A stretch of 64,000 nt of DNA from Candidatus Bathyarchaeia archaeon. Lineage in GTDB: Archaea > Thermoproteota > Bathyarchaeia > Bathyarchaeales > Bathycorpusculaceae. The stretch covers positions 160,001 to 224,000 of the forward strand of contig JAVZLK010000001.1 in assembly GCA_038883795.1 (NCBI GenBank), given 5' to 3'. Below the pieces are notes generated by a model. It saw only the letters and a program-made list of their open reading frames with translations. It had not been told where the DNA came from and ran no database searches. The stretch's first letter is position 1. Each line of letters starts with the position of its first letter. The position numbers were made by a program, and so were the translations under genes. Positions 18,919-27,640 of the stretch are shown here, piece after piece.

Positions 18919-19515
18919 GTGTTAGAATTGAAAAAATCAATTATAATAGGTATAGATTTAGCGGGAACCCCCAAAAATCCAACGGGATGGGCTTTGTGGA
19001 AGGATAAAATGGTGAAAACGGCTTTAGTTTATACAGACGAGGAAATTCTTGAGGGTGTTTTAAGCCATGCGCCATCCATTGTGGCGATAGACGCTCCGTT
19101 AAGGCTGCCGAAAGAGGGAATTTTAAGGAAGGCAGATAAAGAAATGATAAGGCTAGGATACAGGGTTTTTCCGCCAAGCCTCCCAGCAATGAAAAAGCTA
19201 ACATTACGGGCCATAAAAATAAACAAGTTAATACTGGAAAAAAGCTATAAAATAATAGAAGTACACCCAACGTCAACCAGAAAGGCTTTGAGCATGCCCT
19301 TAAAAGAGTGGGAAAGAATTCAAATAGCCTTGCAGACTTTAGGAGTAGAAGGAGACATAAAAACTCGCCCTTTGACGTCTCATGAAATCGATGCAGTAAC
19401 AGCAGCCTTAACGGCCTATCTCCACATGCAAAACCTAACCGAAGCGATAGGAGACGCAGAAGAAGGCTTCATAATCGTTCCTAAAAAAATGGATTGGAGA
19501 ACCCTAAAAATATGA
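18919..19515 (+). CDS. DUF429 RNase H-like nuclease
   Basis: GIDLAG, AIDAPL, IEVHP, EIDAVTAA. Confidence 0.85.
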   Translation: MLELKKSIIIGIDLAGTPKNPTGWALWKDKMVKTALVYTDEEILEGVLSHAPSIVAIDAPLRLPKEGILRKADKEMIRLGYRVFPPSLPAMKKLTLRAIKINKLILEKSYKIIEVHPTSTRKALSMPLKEWERIQIALQTLGVEGDIKTRPLTSHEIDAVTAALTAYLHMQNLTEAIGDAEEGFIIVPKKMDWRTLKI

Positions 19516-21065
19516 GCCAAAATGAAAAGTTGCATAAAGCTGTGGAATTAACTATTGAGGCAGGATACCAACTTGACAAAGACGCTTTCGAATTCCTAAG
19601 CAGTTTGGCGGCAAAAGAGGACCCTACAGAAATCATAAATAAAGCCCTACAAAAAATTGGAATGATGAAAGAAAAACCGCTTTTCATTGGTAGATCCTTT
19701 CTGGAAGAATTGGTAAAAGAACAAAAACCGAAAGAGGAGGTTCTTATTCAACAAATAGAACCATCCCCAACGATACAGGAAACTGTGCCACCTTTTGGGA
19801 AAGGAAAATTCCACCCATTTGCAAAAGACATTGAAGCACGCATTAAGGTAATTGATAACCCAGCGGAAAAGTTAAGCTCAAGCGGAACGATGGAGGATTA
19901 TCTGCAATATTTTCAAGATAGATTTAAGCGCATAGAAAAATTGCTAAGGCAACGAATAGATGTTAAAAGTGCAACTTCAATAATTGAAGCCCTAAAATCT
20001 CCTCCAAACACCCGTTTAAAAGTAATTGGCATGGTCACAGAAAAGAGAGAAGCAAAACAGAAAATCTTGTTAACAGTTGAGGATTTGAATGCAAGCGCTA
20101 CAATGTTAGTGCCTCAAACCGCACCAGAAGAAGTTTTGAAAAAGGCACGTTGCCTCCTCCTTGATCAAGTTGTCTGTTTTAGTGTTGTAAAAACAAGAGG
20201 CAACCTATTAATAGTTGAAGATATAATCTTGCCAGACATAGCACAGAAAACACCTCATACGGCGCCAATTCCAGTTTACGCTGTACTCACCTCGGATATG
20301 CATGTGGGCAGCACAAAATTTCAAAAAAAGGCTTTTAACCGCTTTCTTTTATGGCTTAATGGCGAATATGGAAACGAAAAAATGAGAGAGATAGCAAGCC
20401 ACGTCAAATATATTTTAGTGGCAGGCGATATTGTGGACGGTATAGGAGTTTATCCAAACCAAGTTAAAGAATTAGCAATAAAAAATATCGATGAGCAGTA
20501 TAGGCTTGCCCAAGAATATTTTGAAAACATTCCAGAATACATCGAAGTGACGGTCATACCAGGAAACCATGATGCCCCCAGAAAAGCGCTGCCACAACCA
20601 CCCATAAAGAACCCTTTCTTGGAAACACTACAAGAAAACCGAAAATTCTATTCCCTTGGAAACCCTTGCACCATAAGCCTTCACGACGTTGAAGTTCTGT
20701 TATACCACGGTCGCAGCTTAGACGACGTCATCCCCACAGTTCCCGAAATGGATCCCAACCAGCCTGAAAAAGCAATGAAGCTATTACTACAGAGTCGCCA
20801 TTTAGCGCCCACATATGGCGAAAAAACACCCATCTCCCCTGAAAACAGAGACTGCCTAGTTATTGAGCGCGTTCCCGACATTTTCCATGCCGGTCACATA
20901 CACGCATTAGGCTATACATCTTATCGTGGAGTCTTAATTGTAAATTCAGGAGGATGGCAAGAGCAAACAGATTATATGAGAAGAATGGGCTTTGTTCCAA
21001 CGCCCGGAAAAGTTCCCGTAGTTAATCTCCAAACACTGGAGGTCAATATCCTTTCATTCTCTTAA
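19512..21065 (+). CDS. polB: DNA polymerase D small (proofreading) subunit DP1
   Basis: OB fold; SDMHVGS, GDIVDG, PGNHD, YHGRS, RHLAP, GHIH. Confidence 0.96.
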   Translation: MSQNEKLHKAVELTIEAGYQLDKDAFEFLSSLAAKEDPTEIINKALQKIGMMKEKPLFIGRSFLEELVKEQKPKEEVLIQQIEPSPTIQETVPPFGKGKFHPFAKDIEARIKVIDNPAEKLSSSGTMEDYLQYFQDRFKRIEKLLRQRIDVKSATSIIEALKSPPNTRLKVIGMVTEKREAKQKILLTVEDLNASATMLVPQTAPEEVLKKARCLLLDQVVCFSVVKTRGNLLIVEDIILPDIAQKTPHTAPIPVYAVLTSDMHVGSTKFQKKAFNRFLLWLNGEYGNEKMREIASHVKYILVAGDIVDGIGVYPNQVKELAIKNIDEQYRLAQEYFENIPEYIEVTVIPGNHDAPRKALPQPPIKNPFLETLQENRKFYSLGNPCTISLHDVEVLLYHGRSLDDVIPTVPEMDPNQPEKAMKLLLQSRHLAPTYGEKTPISPENRDCLVIERVPDIFHAGHIHALGYTSYRGVLIVNSGGWQEQTDYMRRMGFVPTPGKVPVVNLQTLEVNILSFS

Positions 21066-21595
21066 GATAAACCACGTGCAATCAACCGTGCAACCCGAAG
21101 GGGTTCGGGAATTCTGCCAAAAAGGCGCAAAGAACGCACAAAGCTAGAAGCCCACCTAACATTTGTGCCCACCGTTTCCATATACAATGGAGCTTCGCCT
21201 TTCTTGATGTGGATTTTATAAACTGGGCCAAGCCTTTGAAACACTCCCCAGCGCGCCTCCCAATCTTTAAAATGTCTTTTGAGGGCACGTTTTACCGCTT
21301 TGTTATTTGGTTTTGTTTGCGCTATTATGAGAAGGGGCTTTCTGAATTTTTCGTGAATCAGCATTGGATCGATAAGGTTGAAACCAGCATAAGATACACC
21401 AGCTAACAGAATGGCATCGAATTCCCAATCCTCTAGGATTTCGGCAAGCTTTTCCGTCGCGTCTAATCCATCAACCGTTATTTTTGTGACTTTCACGTTT
21501 TCAATGGTAAATTGTCTTAGCAAAACTATGGCGAGAAGAGTTTCGCGGGTTACTCCTTTCTGGAAACTTCCGTCTTCAACCCCCACGGTTAGCAT
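21062..21595 (-). CDS. DUF99 family endonuclease (EndoV-like)
   Basis: GVEDGSF, ITVDGLDAT, GVSYAGFN, PEPLRVA; ATG overlaps cdc6 3' end. Confidence 0.85.
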   Translation of the reverse strand: MLTVGVEDGSFQKGVTRETLLAIVLLRQFTIENVKVTKITVDGLDATEKLAEILEDWEFDAILLAGVSYAGFNLIDPMLIHEKFRKPLLIIAQTKPNNKAVKRALKRHFKDWEARWGVFQRLGPVYKIHIKKGEAPLYMETVGTNVRWASSFVRSLRLFGRIPEPLRVARLIARGLS

Positions 21596-22820
21596 GTTTT
21601 GAAAGGCTTTTTGTTTCATATTCCACCAGACGCCCAAGTCTAGGGTCATTAGCGAAAACGTCTCTAATAAGAGTGCGCGCTATTTCTAGCCTAATTTTTT
21701 TCGTTCTTCCATACCGTCCCATGCTTATAACCTTAGCATTCACAAGCCCCATAGAATCTAGCTCATTCACCAAAGTGCTCAGCCGCCGTTGTGTTAAAGG
21801 GGTAACGCCCACTTCTCCACAAAGTTCCGCATACACATCATATATCTCGCCTGTAATGGCGCTATGAATGTTCGCCCTATTCAAATGATATACGCTCAAG
21901 ATCACAAGCTTTGAATGCAAAGTTAAATTCCGTAAGGCCTCGACAACTCGGTTGTGTTCAATGTGTTTTTCAGCTTCTCGAACATGCTCTTCAGCTACAA
22001 AACTTGCTCCCTTCCGTTCGGCAACCTCCCCAGCAACACGCAACAAATCTAAGGCTCGCCGCGCATCACCATGTTCTGCAGCTGCCAAAGCAGCGCAAAG
22101 GCTTATAGCTGCTTCAGATAAAGCGCCGTCGTGAAAGGCTAGTTTAGCCCGTTCCAACAAAATGTTTCCCAATTCACTAGCATCGTAGGGCCTAAAAACA
22201 ATTTCTTCCTCGCTTAAGGAACTAAAAACTCTTGGGTCCAGAAACTCTTTCAGGCGAAGATCATTTGATATACCCACAATGGACGCTTTACTATTACGCA
22301 AATTTTCATTTATTCTTGTCAACTCATAAAGGAGATTATCTCCGCGTACTTTTACTAGAGCGTCAATTTCATCTAAAGCGACAATAAAAACAATTTTTAA
22401 AACATCTAAACCAGCTTTAAATCTATCAAAGACTTCACCGACAGATAAACCAGTAAACGGAACATGCACACCTATACTTTGGCATAATCCAGAAAAAACG
22501 CGGTATTCAGAGCCAGCCATGCGACAGTTTACATAACAGAATTTGACAGGAGCGTTAAACTCCTTAGCTTTTTCCTCTAAATGACTTAAAACATATTTTG
22601 TTACCGCCGTCTTGCCTGTACCAGTTTTTCCATATATAAAAACGTTGGAGCATCTAGACCCTTTAAGAACTGGGGCAACTGTTTCCCCGAGTCGTGTAAT
22701 TTGTTCTTCTCTATGAGGAAGTTTATCAGGTAAGTAATCATGCCGCAAGACCTCTCTGTTTTTGAAGATTTTATTATTTGAAATAAATTTCTCGAACACG
22801 TCGTCAAGGATGTTGCTCAT
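21576..22820 (-). CDS. cdc6: Orc1/Cdc6 replication initiator
   Basis: LPHRE, GKTGTGKT, LDEID, GDARRALDLL, C-terminal wHTH with GRYGRT wing. Confidence 0.98.
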   Translation of the reverse strand: MSNILDDVFEKFISNNKIFKNREVLRHDYLPDKLPHREEQITRLGETVAPVLKGSRCSNVFIYGKTGTGKTAVTKYVLSHLEEKAKEFNAPVKFCYVNCRMAGSEYRVFSGLCQSIGVHVPFTGLSVGEVFDRFKAGLDVLKIVFIVALDEIDALVKVRGDNLLYELTRINENLRNSKASIVGISNDLRLKEFLDPRVFSSLSEEEIVFRPYDASELGNILLERAKLAFHDGALSEAAISLCAALAAAEHGDARRALDLLRVAGEVAERKGASFVAEEHVREAEKHIEHNRVVEALRNLTLHSKLVILSVYHLNRANIHSAITGEIYDVYAELCGEVGVTPLTQRRLSTLVNELDSMGLVNAKVISMGRYGRTKKIRLEIARTLIRDVFANDPRLGRLVEYETKSLSKHANRGG

Positions 22821-22847
22821 GCGAGCCCCTCGGTAACTTTAGTGGTA

Positions 22848-23382
22848 AAACCCCTATTTCCGGTAGAAAAATAAGCTCTACCATACAAAAAACTAAATGT
22901 TCAACACAAAAATCCTAAAACAAAACTTTGCACATTTACTTGCAGTTTTGGTTAATGAAACACACACCCCACAATTTCTTTTGGAACTCTGTAAGTTTCA
23001 GAATAACTTTTGAGATTCCTGTTAGCTAGGAATATACTCTGAAAGGTTAGAGGACATCATTTTACTATAATACTTATTGTAAAAGTTTTTTGACAAACAC
23101 TAAAAACATAATTTACAACAAAAATGTGTAAAAGGAAATTTTTCCACAAGAAATGAAGGGGTGCCGCTAAAACAAAAATGAACAACAGCTAATACTAAAT
23201 TTCATATTATATTACCTAATTTTCACTTTCGCACTTTAATGCGCCTCTCGCTAAGTTCACAATTTGTAAAGATCTTGTGAAATTAACTTAATAACGCCTC
23301 TTTTTCGACTCCACTTTTCTAAATATTTACTTTTTCTTGCTTCTTTTATGTGAACCGGCCACCCCTTCACTTCCGGTGGAAA
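22848..23382. other. replication origin oriC with 4 ORB elements and AT-rich DUE
   Basis: TTCTACCGGAAATAGGGG (-,22851-22868), TTCCAAAAGAAATTGTGGGG (-,22967-22986), TTCCACAAGAAATGAAGGGGT (+,23142-23162), TTCCACCGGAAGTGAAGGGGT (-,23361-23381); the last two face each other across an AT-rich ~200 bp; upstream of cdc6. Confidence 0.92.
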
Positions 23383-23555
23383 TAGACATTATTCCATGTT
23401 TTTATTTCTAATTCTCTTCTAGAGAATATGTGAAGTCAGTAAAGTCAAAAACGTTAAAATTTTTCCTTCTTTTTTCTTTTCCTCTATTTAATACACTTTT
23501 TCATTTTTTCTGATCTACCATAACAGCTATAACTTGTGAAGTGTAAATTGTGAAA
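23256..23555. repeat. TGTGAA/TGTAAA short repeat set
   Basis: TTCACA 23256; TGTGAA at 23276, 23349, 23429, 23535, 23549; tandem TGTGAAG-TGTAAAT-TGTGAAA 23535-23555. Confidence 0.6.
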
Positions 23556-23574
23556 CACCTATGGTGCTTCGCTG

Positions 23575-24006
23575 ATGCCAGCTAAAAAAATGCGTGTAGA
23601 GCTCTACGATGGCGAGGGCAATAAATATACGGTGTCCTTTGAAGGTCAAATAACTAGGGAAAAGGCTCTCCGCCTATTGGATATGGTAGAGCTTTTGGGT
23701 GGGGTATCAGCAAGTGAAGGAAACCCAGGGACACCTATCCCTGTGACGTCCGACCAGTTAAATAAGTATAGCAAAGTTCGTATGCTAATTCAGAAACATT
23801 TTCCGTTAGTTTGGTTTTCTTCTCGGGATGTTCAGTTAGTTTATGAGCAAGAATTAAAGGAGCCTATAAGTCTTAGCACTGTTGCAACATACCTTTATAG
23901 AATGGCAAGCAAAGGGATGCTTGCTAAAGCTGGGGCCTCTAATCGTTTGAAATACAAGTTGATGCCCACTTATCCGCAAATATTGCCTAAACAGCAGACA
24001 CCATGA
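23575..24006 (+). CDS. hypothetical protein, small N-terminal domain + winged-helix
   Basis: FSSRDVQLVYEQELKEPISLSTVATYLYRMASKGML wHTH. Confidence 0.85.
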   Translation: MPAKKMRVELYDGEGNKYTVSFEGQITREKALRLLDMVELLGGVSASEGNPGTPIPVTSDQLNKYSKVRMLIQKHFPLVWFSSRDVQLVYEQELKEPISLSTVATYLYRMASKGMLAKAGASNRLKYKLMPTYPQILPKQQTP

Positions 24007-24013
24007 TACCCCT

Positions 24014-24733
24014 TTATTTGGCTTCTGTTTCCTTCTTTTTTAGAATGTTTTCCATTTCCTTCTTCACGTTATATTTGAATGGAATTTTGCTTGTATCCCT
24101 CTCCAAGTACCCTCCTTCGTAAAGCTTCTTCATCAACCGCGCTGTATGTTCTCGGCTGAGCTTGATGCGCTCTTTTATTTCAGGCGCGGTTTTAGGGCCT
24201 TCAGAAGCCAACATTTCCAGAACAGCCAATTCTGTTTCTGTGAGAGGGGCTAAGGCCTTTTCTCTTTTTATGGGTATTACCGCCTCAATTTTTGCCTCGG
24301 GAACCATAGAAAACTGTCGAGTTTGCTCCTCAACTTCCGAGACCTTCGAATTTAACTTTTCAAATGCCGCAGAAAGAGCACTTACTCTTTCATCAACTTC
24401 ACCAAGTCTTTTTGAAATTTCCTCTTTATGTTCTAGAACTTTACTTACTTTTTCCTCTAAAGATTGAACCCTCTTAGAAGTTTCTTCCGTTTTGTTTAAT
24501 GCTCTTTCACTTTTTGAGGAAAGGGCTTCAACTTTATAAACCACCAACTCCATCCTTTCAGCTTCGCGCTTTAACTCTTTATTAAAGCTCACTACAATGT
24601 CGCCAATGATTTCCCTTGCCTTTTCATATTCTTTCCGCACCTTTTGCACCTGTCTATAGTACTCAACAGCAGCCCATACAGTTATGACAACCAAACTTCC
24701 AACAAGAATCAAAGGCGTATCCAAATGGAACAC
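24014..24733 (-). CDS. TM-anchored coiled-coil + C-terminal winged-helix protein
   Basis: TM ~res 7-24; heptad region ~25-140; LTETELAVLEML..EGPKTAPEI...LSREHTARLMKKLYEGGYLER. Confidence 0.87.
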   Translation of the reverse strand: MFHLDTPLILVGSLVVITVWAAVEYYRQVQKVRKEYEKAREIIGDIVVSFNKELKREAERMELVVYKVEALSSKSERALNKTEETSKRVQSLEEKVSKVLEHKEEISKRLGEVDERVSALSAAFEKLNSKVSEVEEQTRQFSMVPEAKIEAVIPIKREKALAPLTETELAVLEMLASEGPKTAPEIKERIKLSREHTARLMKKLYEGGYLERDTSKIPFKYNVKKEMENILKKKETEAK

Positions 24734-24739
24734 CTCACT

Positions 24740-25009
24740 TGTGATTTATATGTGATTACGCATAATCCAAGCATGTTACATCACACATCACAGTTTTTAA
24801 CATAAAAGATTTAAAGATTACGGTCAAATCGGAACTATAAGATTCGATGACATCACACATCACAATAATCGAGGCAAACACTTGATACTAAATGATACAT
24901 TAAAAGTCAGCTTTTTAGGAGTTCTTGATTTTTCCGCCCTAATTTGCGCCCCAATTAGCATAGTGAATTAAAGAGTACTTTTCCCTTGCATGTGACTTGT
25001 GATGTCACA
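24740..25009. repeat. TGTGAT/ATCACA heptamer array
   Basis: TGTGAT 24740, 24751, 24998; ACATCACACATCACA at 24778-24792 and 24850-24864; TGTGAC 24991, GTCACA 25004. Confidence 0.75.
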
Positions 25010-25484
25010 TAAAGCCCTCAGCGGGGTTTGAAAGCTTTTTTAAACTGTTTTCAAGCTCTTCCCTAACCATCTTAATGAGTTTTAAATGTTCATCAAGTTC
25101 GCTGCCCTTGTTTGGTATATCCTTGTATGCTTCCATAAACTCGTGTAATTTGTTTGCTATTTCGAGATATGGATCGAGCGTTGTGTCTTCAAACACTCCT
25201 AAGTATCCTAGGAGCAGTATGGTGTAGATTGATTTTATGACGTTTTCTTTTGCTTGTTTTAAGGTTCTGTTAAAGGCTCCGCGGCTTATTTTTGCCTTTG
25301 ATAGCCTTAATCTGGCTTTTTCGTCGTATTTTAGTTGTTTGCCTGAAATATTCTCGGCTAATATGTCAATAAGCAATGTTTCAAGCTGAGTTTTTGTTAA
25401 GTGACTGTTTTTGGCGAGCGTTCTCACAATAGGGTCGTTTAATGCGTTTGTTAACCAGGCTTGGACATTTTCTTTAAGCTTCAA
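25005..25484 (-). CDS. hypothetical HTH DNA-binding protein (HTH_10/sigma-r4-like)
   Basis: LTKTQLETL...EKARL...ISRGAFNRTLKQA pattern. Confidence 0.75.
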   Translation of the reverse strand: MKLKENVQAWLTNALNDPIVRTLAKNSHLTKTQLETLLIDILAENISGKQLKYDEKARLRLSKAKISRGAFNRTLKQAKENVIKSIYTILLLGYLGVFEDTTLDPYLEIANKLHEFMEAYKDIPNKGSELDEHLKLIKMVREELENSLKKLSNPAEGFM

Positions 25485-25627
25485 GCTTTTCTCTCCACAG
25501 ACTTGCTGGATGGATACACTTTTGTATACAATTATTATTTTAACTTATCGAGTGCTATGATGAAAAGTATGCTTTGCTAACACAAACATTTTATGTTAAA
25601 GGAAATAGTGTAGGATGAGGATGTCCT

Positions 25628-26800
25628 TTGAATTTAAACTTTAAGCCCGCAGATCGCCTAAAAGGCATAAAATATTCTGGAATACGCCGCTTTTTTGAAA
25701 TAGCCCAAAAAATGCCAAATGTTATCAATTTGAGCGTCGGTGAACCCGATTTTGCGCCGCCAAAGCACGCTTTAGATGCCGGTTGGCAAGCCATGAAAGA
25801 AGGTAAAACCCATTATACACCAACTAATGGGATTCCTGAGCTTAGAGAGGCTTTAGCGCGGAAAGCCTATCAAGACTATGGTCTCCAATACGATTCAAAC
25901 GCTGAAATACTTGTTACTGTAGGCGGGACTGAGGCTATTTCTTTGGCCGTTGCTGGGCTGGTGAATCCCGGTGATGAAGTGCTGATTCCAAACCCCGGAT
26001 TTGTTTGTTATGAACCAAGTGTTCTCTTGGCAGGCGGTGTTCCTGTTTATGTTCCTTTGCGGGAGGAAAATTCTTTCAAACCGTCTGTTGAGGATGTGAT
26101 ATCGCGTATCACGAAAAGGTCACGTGTGATGATACTAAACTATCCTAACAACCCTACGGGTGCTGTTCTTTCTCATGATGAAGCAGCCACTTTGGCGAAA
26201 ATTGCTGTAGAGCATGATCTGCTTGTGATTTCAGATGAGGTTTATGAGAAAATAGTTTATGATGACGCTAAACATAGTTGCTTTGCGGCTTTTCCTGGAA
26301 TGCGAGAACGCACTCTCGTCATTAACTCTTTCTCTAAAACTTATGCCATGACGGGTTTGCGTGTTGGGTACATTTATGGACCAAAAGAGCTTATTTTTTT
26401 TCTTTGGCTCGTTCATCAGTATACTGTTGCCTGTGTAGATAGTCTCGCACAACATATCGCCTTAGCAGCATTGAAAGGTTCACAAGACTTTGTTAAAAAT
26501 ATGGTGCAAGAGTTTGATAGGCGAAGACAATTAGTGCATAAAAGGCTTATGGAAATTGAGGGTTTTAATTGTAGTCTCCCCAAAGGCGCTTTTTATGTTT
26601 TCCCAAACATAAAAGCCTTTGGCATGAGTTCAGAGGAGTTTGCTGAGTTCCTTGTGAAAGAAGCGGGCGTTGTGACTGTTCCAGGGTCTGCATTCGGCGT
26701 TCATGGTGAAGGACATATAAGAATTTCCTATGCTGCGGCGTATGAAAAATTAGAAGAAGCATTAAACCGTATAGAAAGAGCTGTTAAAAAGATTAAGTAA
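25628..26800 (+). CDS. class I/II PLP aminotransferase (aspartate/aromatic)
   Basis: GEPDF, PNNPTG, DEVY, SFSKTYAMTGLRVG. Confidence 0.93.
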   Translation: MNLNFKPADRLKGIKYSGIRRFFEIAQKMPNVINLSVGEPDFAPPKHALDAGWQAMKEGKTHYTPTNGIPELREALARKAYQDYGLQYDSNAEILVTVGGTEAISLAVAGLVNPGDEVLIPNPGFVCYEPSVLLAGGVPVYVPLREENSFKPSVEDVISRITKRSRVMILNYPNNPTGAVLSHDEAATLAKIAVEHDLLVISDEVYEKIVYDDAKHSCFAAFPGMRERTLVINSFSKTYAMTGLRVGYIYGPKELIFFLWLVHQYTVACVDSLAQHIALAALKGSQDFVKNMVQEFDRRRQLVHKRLMEIEGFNCSLPKGAFYVFPNIKAFGMSSEEFAEFLVKEAGVVTVPGSAFGVHGEGHIRISYAAAYEKLEEALNRIERAVKKIK

Positions 26801-26806
26801 ACTCTT

Positions 26807-27640
26807 TTATAACTCCTCTGTATGCCTTTTTAATTCGTCGAAAAGTTCCGGACGTAAATCCCTTAATGTAGGAACAAAAGTTTCCACGGGCTTTATGTTT
26901 GCATAATCCACATCACACATCACAAGGTCCTCTTCATCATATTTTGCTTGGGCTAAAACTTTTCCATTAGGCCCCACAAGTCGGCTTCCTCCCCAAAACT
27001 GCAAGCCATCTTCTATTCCTACAAGATTAACATAAGCTAGAAAAGCCGTGTTCTCCATGGCTCTAGCTATGGTTAGCGCCTCAAAAAATGCTTTTCTGAT
27101 TGCTGGGGATGCAGAAATGCAGACTATTAATTGGGCCCCTTTTAGCCTTATTAAGCGGCTTACTTCTGGGAAAAATATGTCGTAACATATGATTAAGCCT
27201 ATTTTTCCAATTTTTGTTTCAAAGGCTGTTGCGTGATATCCATGGCGGAAATACCTTTTTTCTTCAAAGACGCTGTGAGTTGGAAGATACATTTTTCGGT
27301 ATTTTCCTATGAAGCCTTCCGGGCCTATGAGGACCGCCGCATTATAAAGGGTAGCTTTAGTTTTTTCGCTTAATTCCGGCATTCCAAAAACGATATAGGA
27401 GTTTGTTTTCTTGGCTATGTCTTCTAAGGCTTTAACCGAAGGCCCCGGTATTGTTTCTGCTAACTCATATAATTGGTCTCTAACAGTGTAGCCTGTTAAC
27501 GAAAGTTCTGGAAAAATTGTAAGGTTTGCACCCTGTTTTTTAGTTTTGTTTACAATAGCCTCCATTTTCTTTATGTTTGCTGCTTTGTCTCCGCGTTTGC
27601 AGCTGATTTGCGCTAAGGCCAATTTAATTTTATTTTCCAT
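26807..27640 (-). CDS. nitrilase-superfamily C-N hydrolase (putative glutaminase partner of NadE)
   Basis: FPEL, YRK, ICYD catalytic triad; 13 nt downstream of nadE. Confidence 0.88.
   Translation of the reverse strand: MENKIKLALAQISCKRGDKAANIKKMEAIVNKTKKQGANLTIFPELSLTGYTVRDQLYELAETIPGPSVKALEDIAKKTNSYIVFGMPELSEKTKATLYNAAVLIGPEGFIGKYRKMYLPTHSVFEEKRYFRHGYHATAFETKIGKIGLIICYDIFFPEVSRLIRLKGAQLIVCISASPAIRKAFFEALTIARAMENTAFLAYVNLVGIEDGLQFWGGSRLVGPNGKVLAQAKYDEEDLVMCDVDYANIKPVETFVPTLRDLRPELFDELKRHTEEL

Follow-up and report, generated by a model that had tools for sequence, protein, structure and literature searches.

The replicon model of 1963 held that replication origins are fixed to the cell envelope, and origin-to-envelope anchors are known in bacteria, such as RacA with its ram sites in Bacillus subtilis and RocS in Streptococcus pneumoniae. 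To our knowledge, archaeal chromosome positioning and segregation are largely unknown outside the work on SegAB, and we know of no described link between an archaeal origin and the membrane. Here we analyse a stretch of 64,000 nucleotides from a Candidatus Bathyarchaeia archaeon (contig JAVZLK010000001.1, positions 160,001 to 224,000), hereafter the window, whose own coordinates are used throughout; its source genome is 2.18 Mb long and 87% complete. Beside a predicted origin and the initiator gene orc1/cdc6 paralogue 1 (cdc6-1), the window carries three genes, here called A, B and C, which we tentatively propose to be an ancient self-regulating module of DNA-binding proteins tied to the Orc1/Cdc6-1 origin.

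A further bacterial origin-to-envelope anchor is RicO, with ricS, of Staphylococcus aureus (bioRxiv 10.64898/2026.03.06.710092). B would resemble RacA, RocS and RicO in joining a sequence-specific DNA-binding domain and a membrane- or pole-targeting element in one polypeptide, with few origin-proximal sites (candidate sites in the present case) and no need for a ParA-type motor. The trio differs from these anchors in showing no relation of sequence or fold beyond a generic helix-turn-helix (HTH) and in belonging to another domain of life; the predicted anchor of B is N-terminal and transmembrane, with neither amphipathic helix nor DivIVA contact, and the promoter of B coincides with its candidate sites. 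Of the features of the origin-membrane anchor class, we see the predicted architecture of B and private candidate sites close to the origin.

Centromere-binding proteins with adjacent repeat arrays, namely ParR with parC, ParB with parS and the archaeal SegB of SegAB, offer a second comparison. The arrays described below likewise lie beside the gene of their presumed binder, would double as its operator and are private to the locus; the folds differ, however, and the block has no conserved nucleoside triphosphatase partner, a HerA-like ATPase being found between A and B in some relatives only. No ParA/SegA-type ATPase gene was found from polD-small (PolD small subunit) to the aminotransferase gene adjoining C, nor in the block of relatives, the rest of the genome not having been searched. 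Membership in ParABS or SegAB was rejected because no Walker-type ATPase gene adjoins the trio in the window or in the conserved block.

Two groups of winged-helix proteins are also relevant. The archaeal regulators Lrs14, Ss-LrpB and the TrmB family are autoregulated through phased operators, and the locus shares with them the winged helix and several regularly spaced boxes around its own TATA element and start; those regulators are soluble and have regulons, whereas B is predicted to be anchored and its tandem sites were not found elsewhere in the genome. The WhiP/Cdt1 initiators are marked by tandem winged-helix domains homologous to Cdt1 and by an origin that depends on them; A has one predicted winged helix.

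In Sulfolobus origins, the non-initiator protein UBP binds ucm, a conserved motif that lies between origin recognition boxes (ORBs) and is not itself an ORB (PMC12141716). A candidate non-ORB motif interleaved with ORBs is likewise found here. UBP is a beta-rich saddle of 111 residues with hundreds of sites across the genome and is not encoded at the origin (PMC12141716); A, by contrast, is a predicted winged helix, origin-encoded, with its candidate sites clustered at the origin. The haloarchaeal cluster oapABC, adjacent to an origin, was expected to act in replication (PMC7002104) and, as ArvABC, was found to drive extracellular vesicle formation (PMC10927574). It resembles the trio as a conserved three-gene cluster divergent from an origin-associated orc gene across oriC; unlike the trio, it encodes a small GTPase, a zinc-ribbon protein and a DUF2073 protein, with no DNA-binding trio and no arrays. 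An identification of A, B and C with oapABC/ArvABC was rejected, since none of small GTPase, DUF2073 and DUF2072 is among their Pfam matches.

The trio is undescribed in the literature searched; a mention in the 2013 Nitrosopumilus origin paper or in supplementary files is possible. As far as we have seen, the present analysis newly extends the module to genomes of Nitrosopumilaceae type and to further classes, finds that the operator-like element next to B and the site at the C stop codon recur across classes, and brings out the phyletic dependence of A on cdc6-1.

Conservation of the locus

The cdc6-1 gene (21576-22820, minus strand) encodes a protein of 414 residues in which a Pfam search finds Cdc6_C (3e-27), Cdc6_lid (2.6e-25) and AAA domains. 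Across an intergenic region lie A (23575-24006, plus strand, 143 residues), B (24014-24733, minus strand, 239 residues) and C (25005-25484, minus strand, 159 residues); the open reading frame (ORF) list agrees with the initial annotation of this DNA on all three. In an order-level sample of 41 genomes, A, B and C were each found in 35-37, and cdc6-1 has orthologues in 40 of 41 relatives. All 31 loci covering the complete block show the order cdc6-ori-A-(insert)-B-C; the insert, found in 12 of 32 order-level loci, puts about 2.6 kb between A and B.

The same arrangement recurs at greater distances. It was found in 71 of 80 close loci; outside the order, 40 class genomes have both B and cdc6-1, and in 31 of these the two are no more than 4 kb apart (tallied from rows); the block is present in 15 of 20 such loci that were opened. 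Among loci of Nitrosopumilaceae type (family f37; families and loci carry our own labels), 19 of 20 hold polD-small, cdc6, A, B and C in this order, and the twentieth ends at a contig edge. The initial annotation's premise that the trio is linked to cdc6 and oriC in related genomes thus holds well beyond the order. The B orthologues from an f37 locus bear the names Nitrosopumilus, Nitrosarchaeum and N. maritimus and are annotated as 'winged helix' or 'MarR'. The arrangement thus reaches marine ammonia oxidisers. Mapping in Nitrosopumilus maritimus has found one origin on its chromosome (Pelve et al. 2013, as cited in PMC4010727), and since Nitrosopumilaceae have cultured members, the question of an origin-membrane link becomes directly testable.

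Outside the class, 58 loci were opened and 31 of them have cdc6 beside A. The C and B genes abut or overlap in f44, f49 and f61, and A and B form convergent pairs without cdc6 in f42, f55, f63 and f64. Genes that remain paired in such varied arrangements suggest a functional neighbourhood, more than frozen synteny.

The phyletic pattern was determined in 151 genomes of the class that are at least 85% complete, with E≤1e-70 defining a cdc6-1 orthologue. B was found in 117, cdc6-1 in 99 and A in 91 of these genomes, which are related, so that the counts are not independent events. By row tally, A and cdc6-1 occur together in 89 genomes, cdc6-1 alone in 10, A alone in two, both of them fragmented assemblies, and neither in 50. 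In 37 genomes, most of them from family f24, B was found and cdc6-1 was not; in that family, cdc6-1 and A are each found in only one of 35. A direct search in five f24 genomes (91-95% complete) found no A in any of them; their only cdc6 paralogue is 30-33% identical and located elsewhere, which suggests that the primary origin was lost or replaced in this family. A is present in all 37 f37 genomes and in none of f38, f45, f46, f51 and f53. Occurrences of A that lack the neighbouring cdc6 paralogue are very rare, while B and C persist without it; within the class, A behaves as a satellite of the Orc1-1 origin, and C and B as a pair.

Across 251 sampled genomes of the phylum, A is a single-copy gene in 167 and relatives of C occur in 114. 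The latter are found in 504 species genomes and amount to 3548 proteins; among 120 matches listed, all the named ones are 'hypothetical'. What emerges is a conserved, single-copy, origin-adjacent set of genes with an obvious cis element and a predicted membrane-anchored DNA binder.

The origin region and the TGTGAA array

The region between cdc6-1 and A (22821-23574, 754 bp, no strand) is predicted to contain an ORB origin, a sound prediction from its sequence, together with the promoter of A. An ORB-like inverted repeat pair lies at 22965-22986 and 23142-23163, with further ORB-like repeats, TTCCGGTAGAAA at 22858 and TTCCGGTGGAAA at 23371, and the cumulative GC-skew minimum of the window falls at 24-25 kb. 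The region thus has what defines an archaeal ORB/Orc1 origin, inverted ORB repeats beside orc1/cdc6 and a switch in strand skew, and the origin that had been placed beside the trio is borne out as a prediction. Its length is kept at 680-821 bp in the 31 order-level loci.

On the A-proximal side, an array of TGTGAA motifs (23256-23555, plus strand) consists of TTCACA at 23256 and same-strand TGTGAA at 23276, 23349, 23429, 23535 and 23549, the latter five at offsets of 456, 529, 609, 715 and 729 from cdc6. Six copies of TGTGAA/TTCACA in 23256-23554 (300 bp) compare with 50 across the whole 64-kb window. Most of the 31 order-level loci share these offsets from cdc6, with spacings of about 73, 80, 106 and 14-15 bp; the second and third TGTGAA sites of the window flank an ORB core. 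The copies at 23535 and 23549, with TGTAAA between them, make up three tandem heptamers, a conserved proximal block directly downstream of a conserved ACCATAACAGCTATAAC block (23517-23533), which we read as a B recognition element (BRE)/TATA-like element. The cdc6-proximal half of the region contains neither this motif nor that of the B-C gap described below. A degenerate TGTGAA..GTAAA pattern has 15 matches in the genome, two of them at the locus, and is not private to it; the case for this array is therefore one of conserved positions, not of uniqueness. Two f37 loci (L170 and L171) have a TGTTAAC-like repeat on the origin side in place of TGTGAA.

ORB-like cores (TTCCATTGGAA, TTCCATATGGAA and TTCCAGTGGAA) were also observed just upstream of A in two loci with no cdc6 near (L199:6669-8444 and L206:6612), in a scan in which about one chance match per locus is expected. 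A may stay adjacent to an origin without cdc6.

The repeats between B and C

The 271-bp gap between B and C (24734-25004) contains seven copies of TGTGAT/ATCACA in 24740-25003, against 32 in the 64-kb window. The 15-mer ACATCACACATCACA occurs exactly at 24778 and 24850, and an inverted copy with two mismatches lies at 24991; at up to three mismatches it has six matches where 1.09 are expected, a number reached in none of 100 shuffles. Tandem Repeats Finder (TRF) reports a period of 7 both here and in the origin-side array. The 7-bp-period motifs distinct from ORBs that the initial annotation had noticed, TGTGAA on the origin side and TGTGAT/ATCACA in the gap, are thus supported by counts and by periodicity.

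Read from B towards C, the gap begins with an operator-like, promoter-proximal element (24740-24757, minus strand; AATCAC-N5-AAATCACAA in the direction of B), conserved in the order, whose two ATCAC half-sites are 11 bp apart and end 5 bp from the start codon of B. Heptamer site 1 (ACATCACACATCACA, 24778-24792, plus strand) lies downstream, in the direction of B, of a GATTTAAAGATTACGGT block (24808-24824, minus strand) and would fall at about the transcription start of B. The block, which on the B strand reads ACCGTAATCTTTAAATC, is nearly invariant in order-level loci and is probably the BRE/TATA-like element of the B promoter. Heptamer site 2 (24850-24864, plus strand), an exact copy 72 bp from site 1, lies upstream of the block. 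Heptamer site 3 (TGTGACTTGTGATGTCACAT, 24991-25010, no strand), inverted relative to sites 1 and 2, abuts and overlaps the C stop codon and is the most widely kept site.

The 24808-24824 block resembles the ACCATAAC..CTATAA block before A, and on their coding strands the two promoters carry similar conserved blocks, ACCATAACAGCTATAAC (23517-23533) and ACCGTAATCTTTAAATC (24808-24824). This may reflect a common BRE/TATA type or a site for a shared factor.

These sites are conserved one by one. A tandem RTCAC pair stands at the C stop codon in distant families of Bathyarchaeia (L128, L129, L135, L141, L144, L152 and L153), and GTGAT is found there in all 19 Nitrosopumilaceae-type loci, most of which also carry the B-proximal element as ATCACgataaATCACaa before the B start. 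The C-B gap of f37 repeats the Bathyarchaeial layout, with GTGAT at the C stop codon, more GTGAT, a conserved block and ATCACgataaATCACaa ahead of B; both groups thus have GTGAT at the C stop codon and the 11-bp direct repeat of ATCAC in front of the B start.

The tandem sites are also almost private to the locus. In the 2.18-Mb genome, TCACANATCACA occurs three times, always within the same 2.2 kb. In 35 of 41 relatives, RTCACANRTCACA has hardly any match outside the gap between B and C; the control, the reversed pattern, gives 0-1 matches per strand per genome. In the 80 close loci (about 16 kb each), RTCACNNRTCAC has 297 matches, of which 240 fall within 300 bp after the C stop codon and three lie outside the locus region; of the remaining 54, those in loci that bear the aminotransferase gene are coding-driven. 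Among candidate sites, the RTCACNNRTCAC matches at -630 from C were rejected as coding-driven, since they encode a V-M-S-D-type motif of the aminotransferase, with T at position 6. Loci without the aminotransferase gene have a genuine second array upstream of C, so that C is flanked by arrays on both sides. As observed in one of them (L062:7480-7590), a dense RTCAC/GTGAY array, including AATCACGCGTGATT and TGTGATAAGTGACGTCACA, occupies the 556 bp upstream of C. That the motifs are conserved and enriched, as the initial annotation's reading supposed, is thus borne out site for site.

Predicted structures of A, B and C

B is predicted to have a membrane anchor (about residues 5-27), a coiled coil (about 28-145) and a MarR/TrmB-type winged helix (164-223). 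The last exceeds the Pfam gathering scores of MarR (2.6e-7, 30.9 bits, cut-off 24.6) and TrmB (2.5e-6, 27.7 bits, cut-off 25.6), and matches Lrs14 below the cut-off (3.3e-6, 27 against 90 bits). Generic coiled-coil matches cover residues 27-145, and the predicted anchor contains a hydrophobic 19-mer at residues 5-23 (Kyte-Doolittle 1.92). The membrane segment, coiled coil and winged helix that had been recognised in B therefore all find support. MarR family regulators are soluble homodimers in which dimerisation helices flank the winged helix. A classification as a full member of that family was rejected, since B shares only the domain, the anchor and a coiled coil of about 115 residues replacing the dimer helices of MarR.

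Of the 31 order-level orthologues, all but one have the anchor, the exception being probably a mis-chosen start, and it is also found in families f37, f44, f48, f49 and f54. In some lineages outside the class B has only 143-163 residues, an anchor and a winged helix; across lineages the anchor is kept, with a variation in spacer length from 143 to 261 residues. As only about four residues precede the anchor, B has no external domain.

In the AlphaFold model of A (predicted local distance difference test, pLDDT, 74), residues 3-41 form two strands and a helix, from which a disordered linker leads to a winged helix (64-129). This winged helix matches the Fur DNA-binding domain with a VIA Z score of 11.1 (root-mean-square deviation 2.6, 74 residues aligned), and Foldseek relates it with probability 1.0 to Fur, RosR and BlaI. 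In the model, the domain has the three-helix bundle and beta wing of a Fur/BlaI/MecI-like winged helix, in line with the small domain and winged HTH first assigned to A. The Penicillinase_R match of A is below the Pfam cut-off (16.6 against 22.6 bits); matches of this type occur in 30 of 32 orthologues, the best at 4.2e-5. The orthologues also give weak winged-helix profile matches, generic and below cut-offs, to Cdc6_C (8 of 32), MCM_C (3 of 32) and RP-C (3 of 32). The beta-beta-alpha N-domain of A (1-41) is highly conserved, and no match to it was found. An hhalign comparison of A with B aligned only the recognition helix and wing and was not significant (probability 2.8%), and so gave no evidence that the two are paralogues; the comparison of C with B gave no alignment.

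C is modelled as an all-helical protein of seven helices (pLDDT 74), and its mean column identity in the order is 70%. It falls into no described family: Pfam and NCBIfam gave no match, PDB sequences none at E≤5 and Foldseek none at E≤0.001, and a Pfam search of 31 orthologues brought up nothing at a meaningful E-value. Weak fold matches were obtained to sigma region 4 (template modelling score 0.62-0.63, Foldseek E>1) and to the LuxR-type domain of EsrB (VIA Z 5.8, within noise for helical models), most VIA rows being generic helical hairpins; in one Atlas neighbour cluster, 14% of the members carry Sigma70_r4 (score 0.79). The N-terminal half of C is possibly a sigma-r4/LuxR-like HTH and the C-terminal half a helical hairpin. 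Of the initial annotation's 'HTH protein', the ORF stands and the HTH is plausible on these weak fold matches. A complex prediction of B (residues 28-239) with C, made with both entered as alignments, gave a score of 0.00 (mark 0.32), which speaks neither for nor against binding.

Proposed mechanism and alternative explanations

We propose that A, through its winged helix, would bind the phased TGTGAA sites that overlap its own promoter and are interleaved with the ORBs. It would thus repress itself from the A-proximal half of the origin, and could modulate initiator binding or origin firing. The C-terminal winged helix of B would recognise the RTCAC/GTGAY arrays, either unaided or together with C, its operon partner; with the anchor of B in the membrane and the coiled coil of B as a spacer, the occupied sites would keep the locus at the cytoplasmic membrane, and with it the origin, which lies 1.2-2 kb away. 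These sites would also repress the B promoter.

The steps of this proposal differ in strength. Autoregulation as the minimal function of the arrays is highly probable, because they sit where the operators of archaeal repressors sit. It is rather likely that B itself binds the RTCAC arrays. Tandem sites that occur essentially only at this locus point to a reader protein without a visible regulon, and if that reader is B, or C bound to B, the anchor of B would place the locus and the nearby origin at the membrane. The fullest form of the proposal, in which many Thermoproteota (Bathyarchaeia, ammonia-oxidising Nitrososphaeria and others) would have a dedicated means of attaching the origin to the membrane, with anchored B and its partner C clamping a private centromere-like array beside oriC while A, between the ORBs, tunes the loading of Orc1-1, must be called unlikely. 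If true, it would be a motor-free archaeal form of the origin attachment of the replicon model and would couple initiation to segregation in lineages dividing by Cdv/ESCRT. Even as a regulatory circuit only, the module would bring something new: in the TGTGAA sites among the ORBs, an accessory element of an archaeal origin, and in A, given its dependence on one Orc1 paralogue, an initiator-specific partner.

The most serious alternative sees in A, B and C transcription factors of an ordinary, autoregulated kind. Each would repress its own promoter through private operators and may control a few other genes through degenerate single sites, and the place of the three at the origin would be inherited synteny or gene dosage with no role for the chromosome. 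We regard this as possible, if on the doubtful side. Several observations speak for it or weigh against a chromosomal module. The arrays bracket the TATA-like blocks and likely transcription starts of A and B, for which ordinary autoregulation would suffice, and the best family matches of B (MarR and TrmB, with Lrs14 below its cut-off) are all transcription regulators. The aminotransferase gene beside C, for which no functional link is expected, is equally syntenic in many loci, so that synteny alone is little proof. B and C occur beside polD-small without cdc6-1 and A in f24 (L136-L139 and L145), where a scan, with about one chance match expected per locus, found no ORB cores near them; A and cdc6-1 are present in f20, f23, f26 and f28, where B was not found. 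Of the 58 loci opened outside the class, 27 have no cdc6 in the stretch fetched and hold convergent A-B pairs, abutting or overlapping C-B pairs, or A-C pairs. The B-like proteins of f41 and f47 lack the anchor, and the DNA-binding fold of C is weakly supported. The cluster oapABC, which appears to be the closest positional analogue, is a precedent to the same effect (PMC7002104, PMC10927574), a caution and not a homologue.

Other observations are difficult to reconcile with ordinary regulators. A regulon made up of its own gene would leave a regulator without purpose, and the tandem heptamer is essentially absent elsewhere; three to five sites per locus, one of them abutting the stop codon of the upstream gene, go beyond the need of simple autoregulation. 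The gene pairings persist, rearranged, across classes, A depends on cdc6-1, and the permanent membrane anchor of B would be unexplained. The membrane-anchoring module envisaged in the initial annotation is partly supported: it gains from the linkage and from the conservation and enrichment of the motifs, and is weakened by their autoregulatory positions, by B-C pairs without cdc6-1 and A in one family and by the 27 loci outside the class that show no cdc6 in the stretch fetched; its other idea, an auxiliary initiator, finds some support for A only.

A second alternative, which we consider distinctly unlikely, is a signalling relay from the membrane to the origin, in which B is a tethered regulator, inactive or released by proteolysis, and C its partner or antagonist; its output would be transcription of the A/cdc6 region, so that the state of the envelope or of growth would be coupled to initiation by regulation and not by a mechanical tether. 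The abutting or overlapping C and B genes, the anchor conserved over a spacer that varies from 143 to 261 residues, and the proximity of cdc6 fit such a relay, as does B itself, which with only about four residues outside the membrane lacks a built-in sensor domain and would depend on a partner. Yet no gene for a protease, kinase or sensor is conserved in the block, the RTCAC sites are found at the B promoter and the C stop codon and not at cdc6, and the cdc6-proximal half of the intergenic region is free of both motif types.

A third alternative, in which only A serves the Orc1-1 origin, as an auxiliary initiator or a licensing factor functionally akin to WhiP or UBP, and B and C are unrelated neighbours, is very improbable: the dependence of A on cdc6-1, the interleaving of TGTGAA sites with ORBs, the weak Cdc6_C, MCM_C and RP-C matches of its orthologues and the ORB-like cores, possibly due to chance, beside A without cdc6 would agree with it, but ten class genomes dispense with A while keeping cdc6-1, the convergent A-B pairs without cdc6 tie A to B, and those profile matches are generic and below cut-offs.

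Neighbouring genes and minor features

On the far side of cdc6-1, polD-small (19494-21065, plus strand) and an Endo_dU protein (21062-21649, minus strand) were assigned from the ORF list and Pfam. With the first start codon listed for each, the cdc6 and Endo_dU ORFs, both on the minus strand, overlap by 74 bp (21576-21649); the start codon of Endo_dU may lie further inside its ORF. Beyond C lie the aminotransferase gene (25628-26800, plus strand) and a nitrilase-like gene (26807-27640, minus strand).

In the two loci opened for it (L023:3054-5637 and L041:3118-5695), the insert between A and B encodes a protein of 341-351 residues and a HerA-like ATPase of 519-527 residues. The ATPase matches DUF87 (3.4e-11), the 351-residue partner has no Pfam match, and no homologue of the ATPase was detected in the genome of the window, which is 87% complete.

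An Rfam search of 22500-25900 gave no match at E≤1, and thus no evidence of a known RNA in the 271-bp gap. In the one RNA run with raw reads, no read fell on the stretch, and two 'metatranscriptomic' runs, which are probably DNA, yielded nothing but contig fragments from related strains. A tandem repeat of 12 bp, TTTCCGCCCCAA (24931-24956, 2.2 copies, TRF score 38), stands between the second and third heptamer sites and is partly kept in close relatives as a CGCCTTAATTTGC-like sequence. A fourth exact copy of ACATCACACATCACA, whose membership in the array is doubtful, lies in the 3' end of the nitrilase-like gene (26910-26924, plus strand), where it encodes V-M-C-D-V; it is kept in close relatives only (G001, G002 and others) and may be either a real outlying site or a coincidence of coding.

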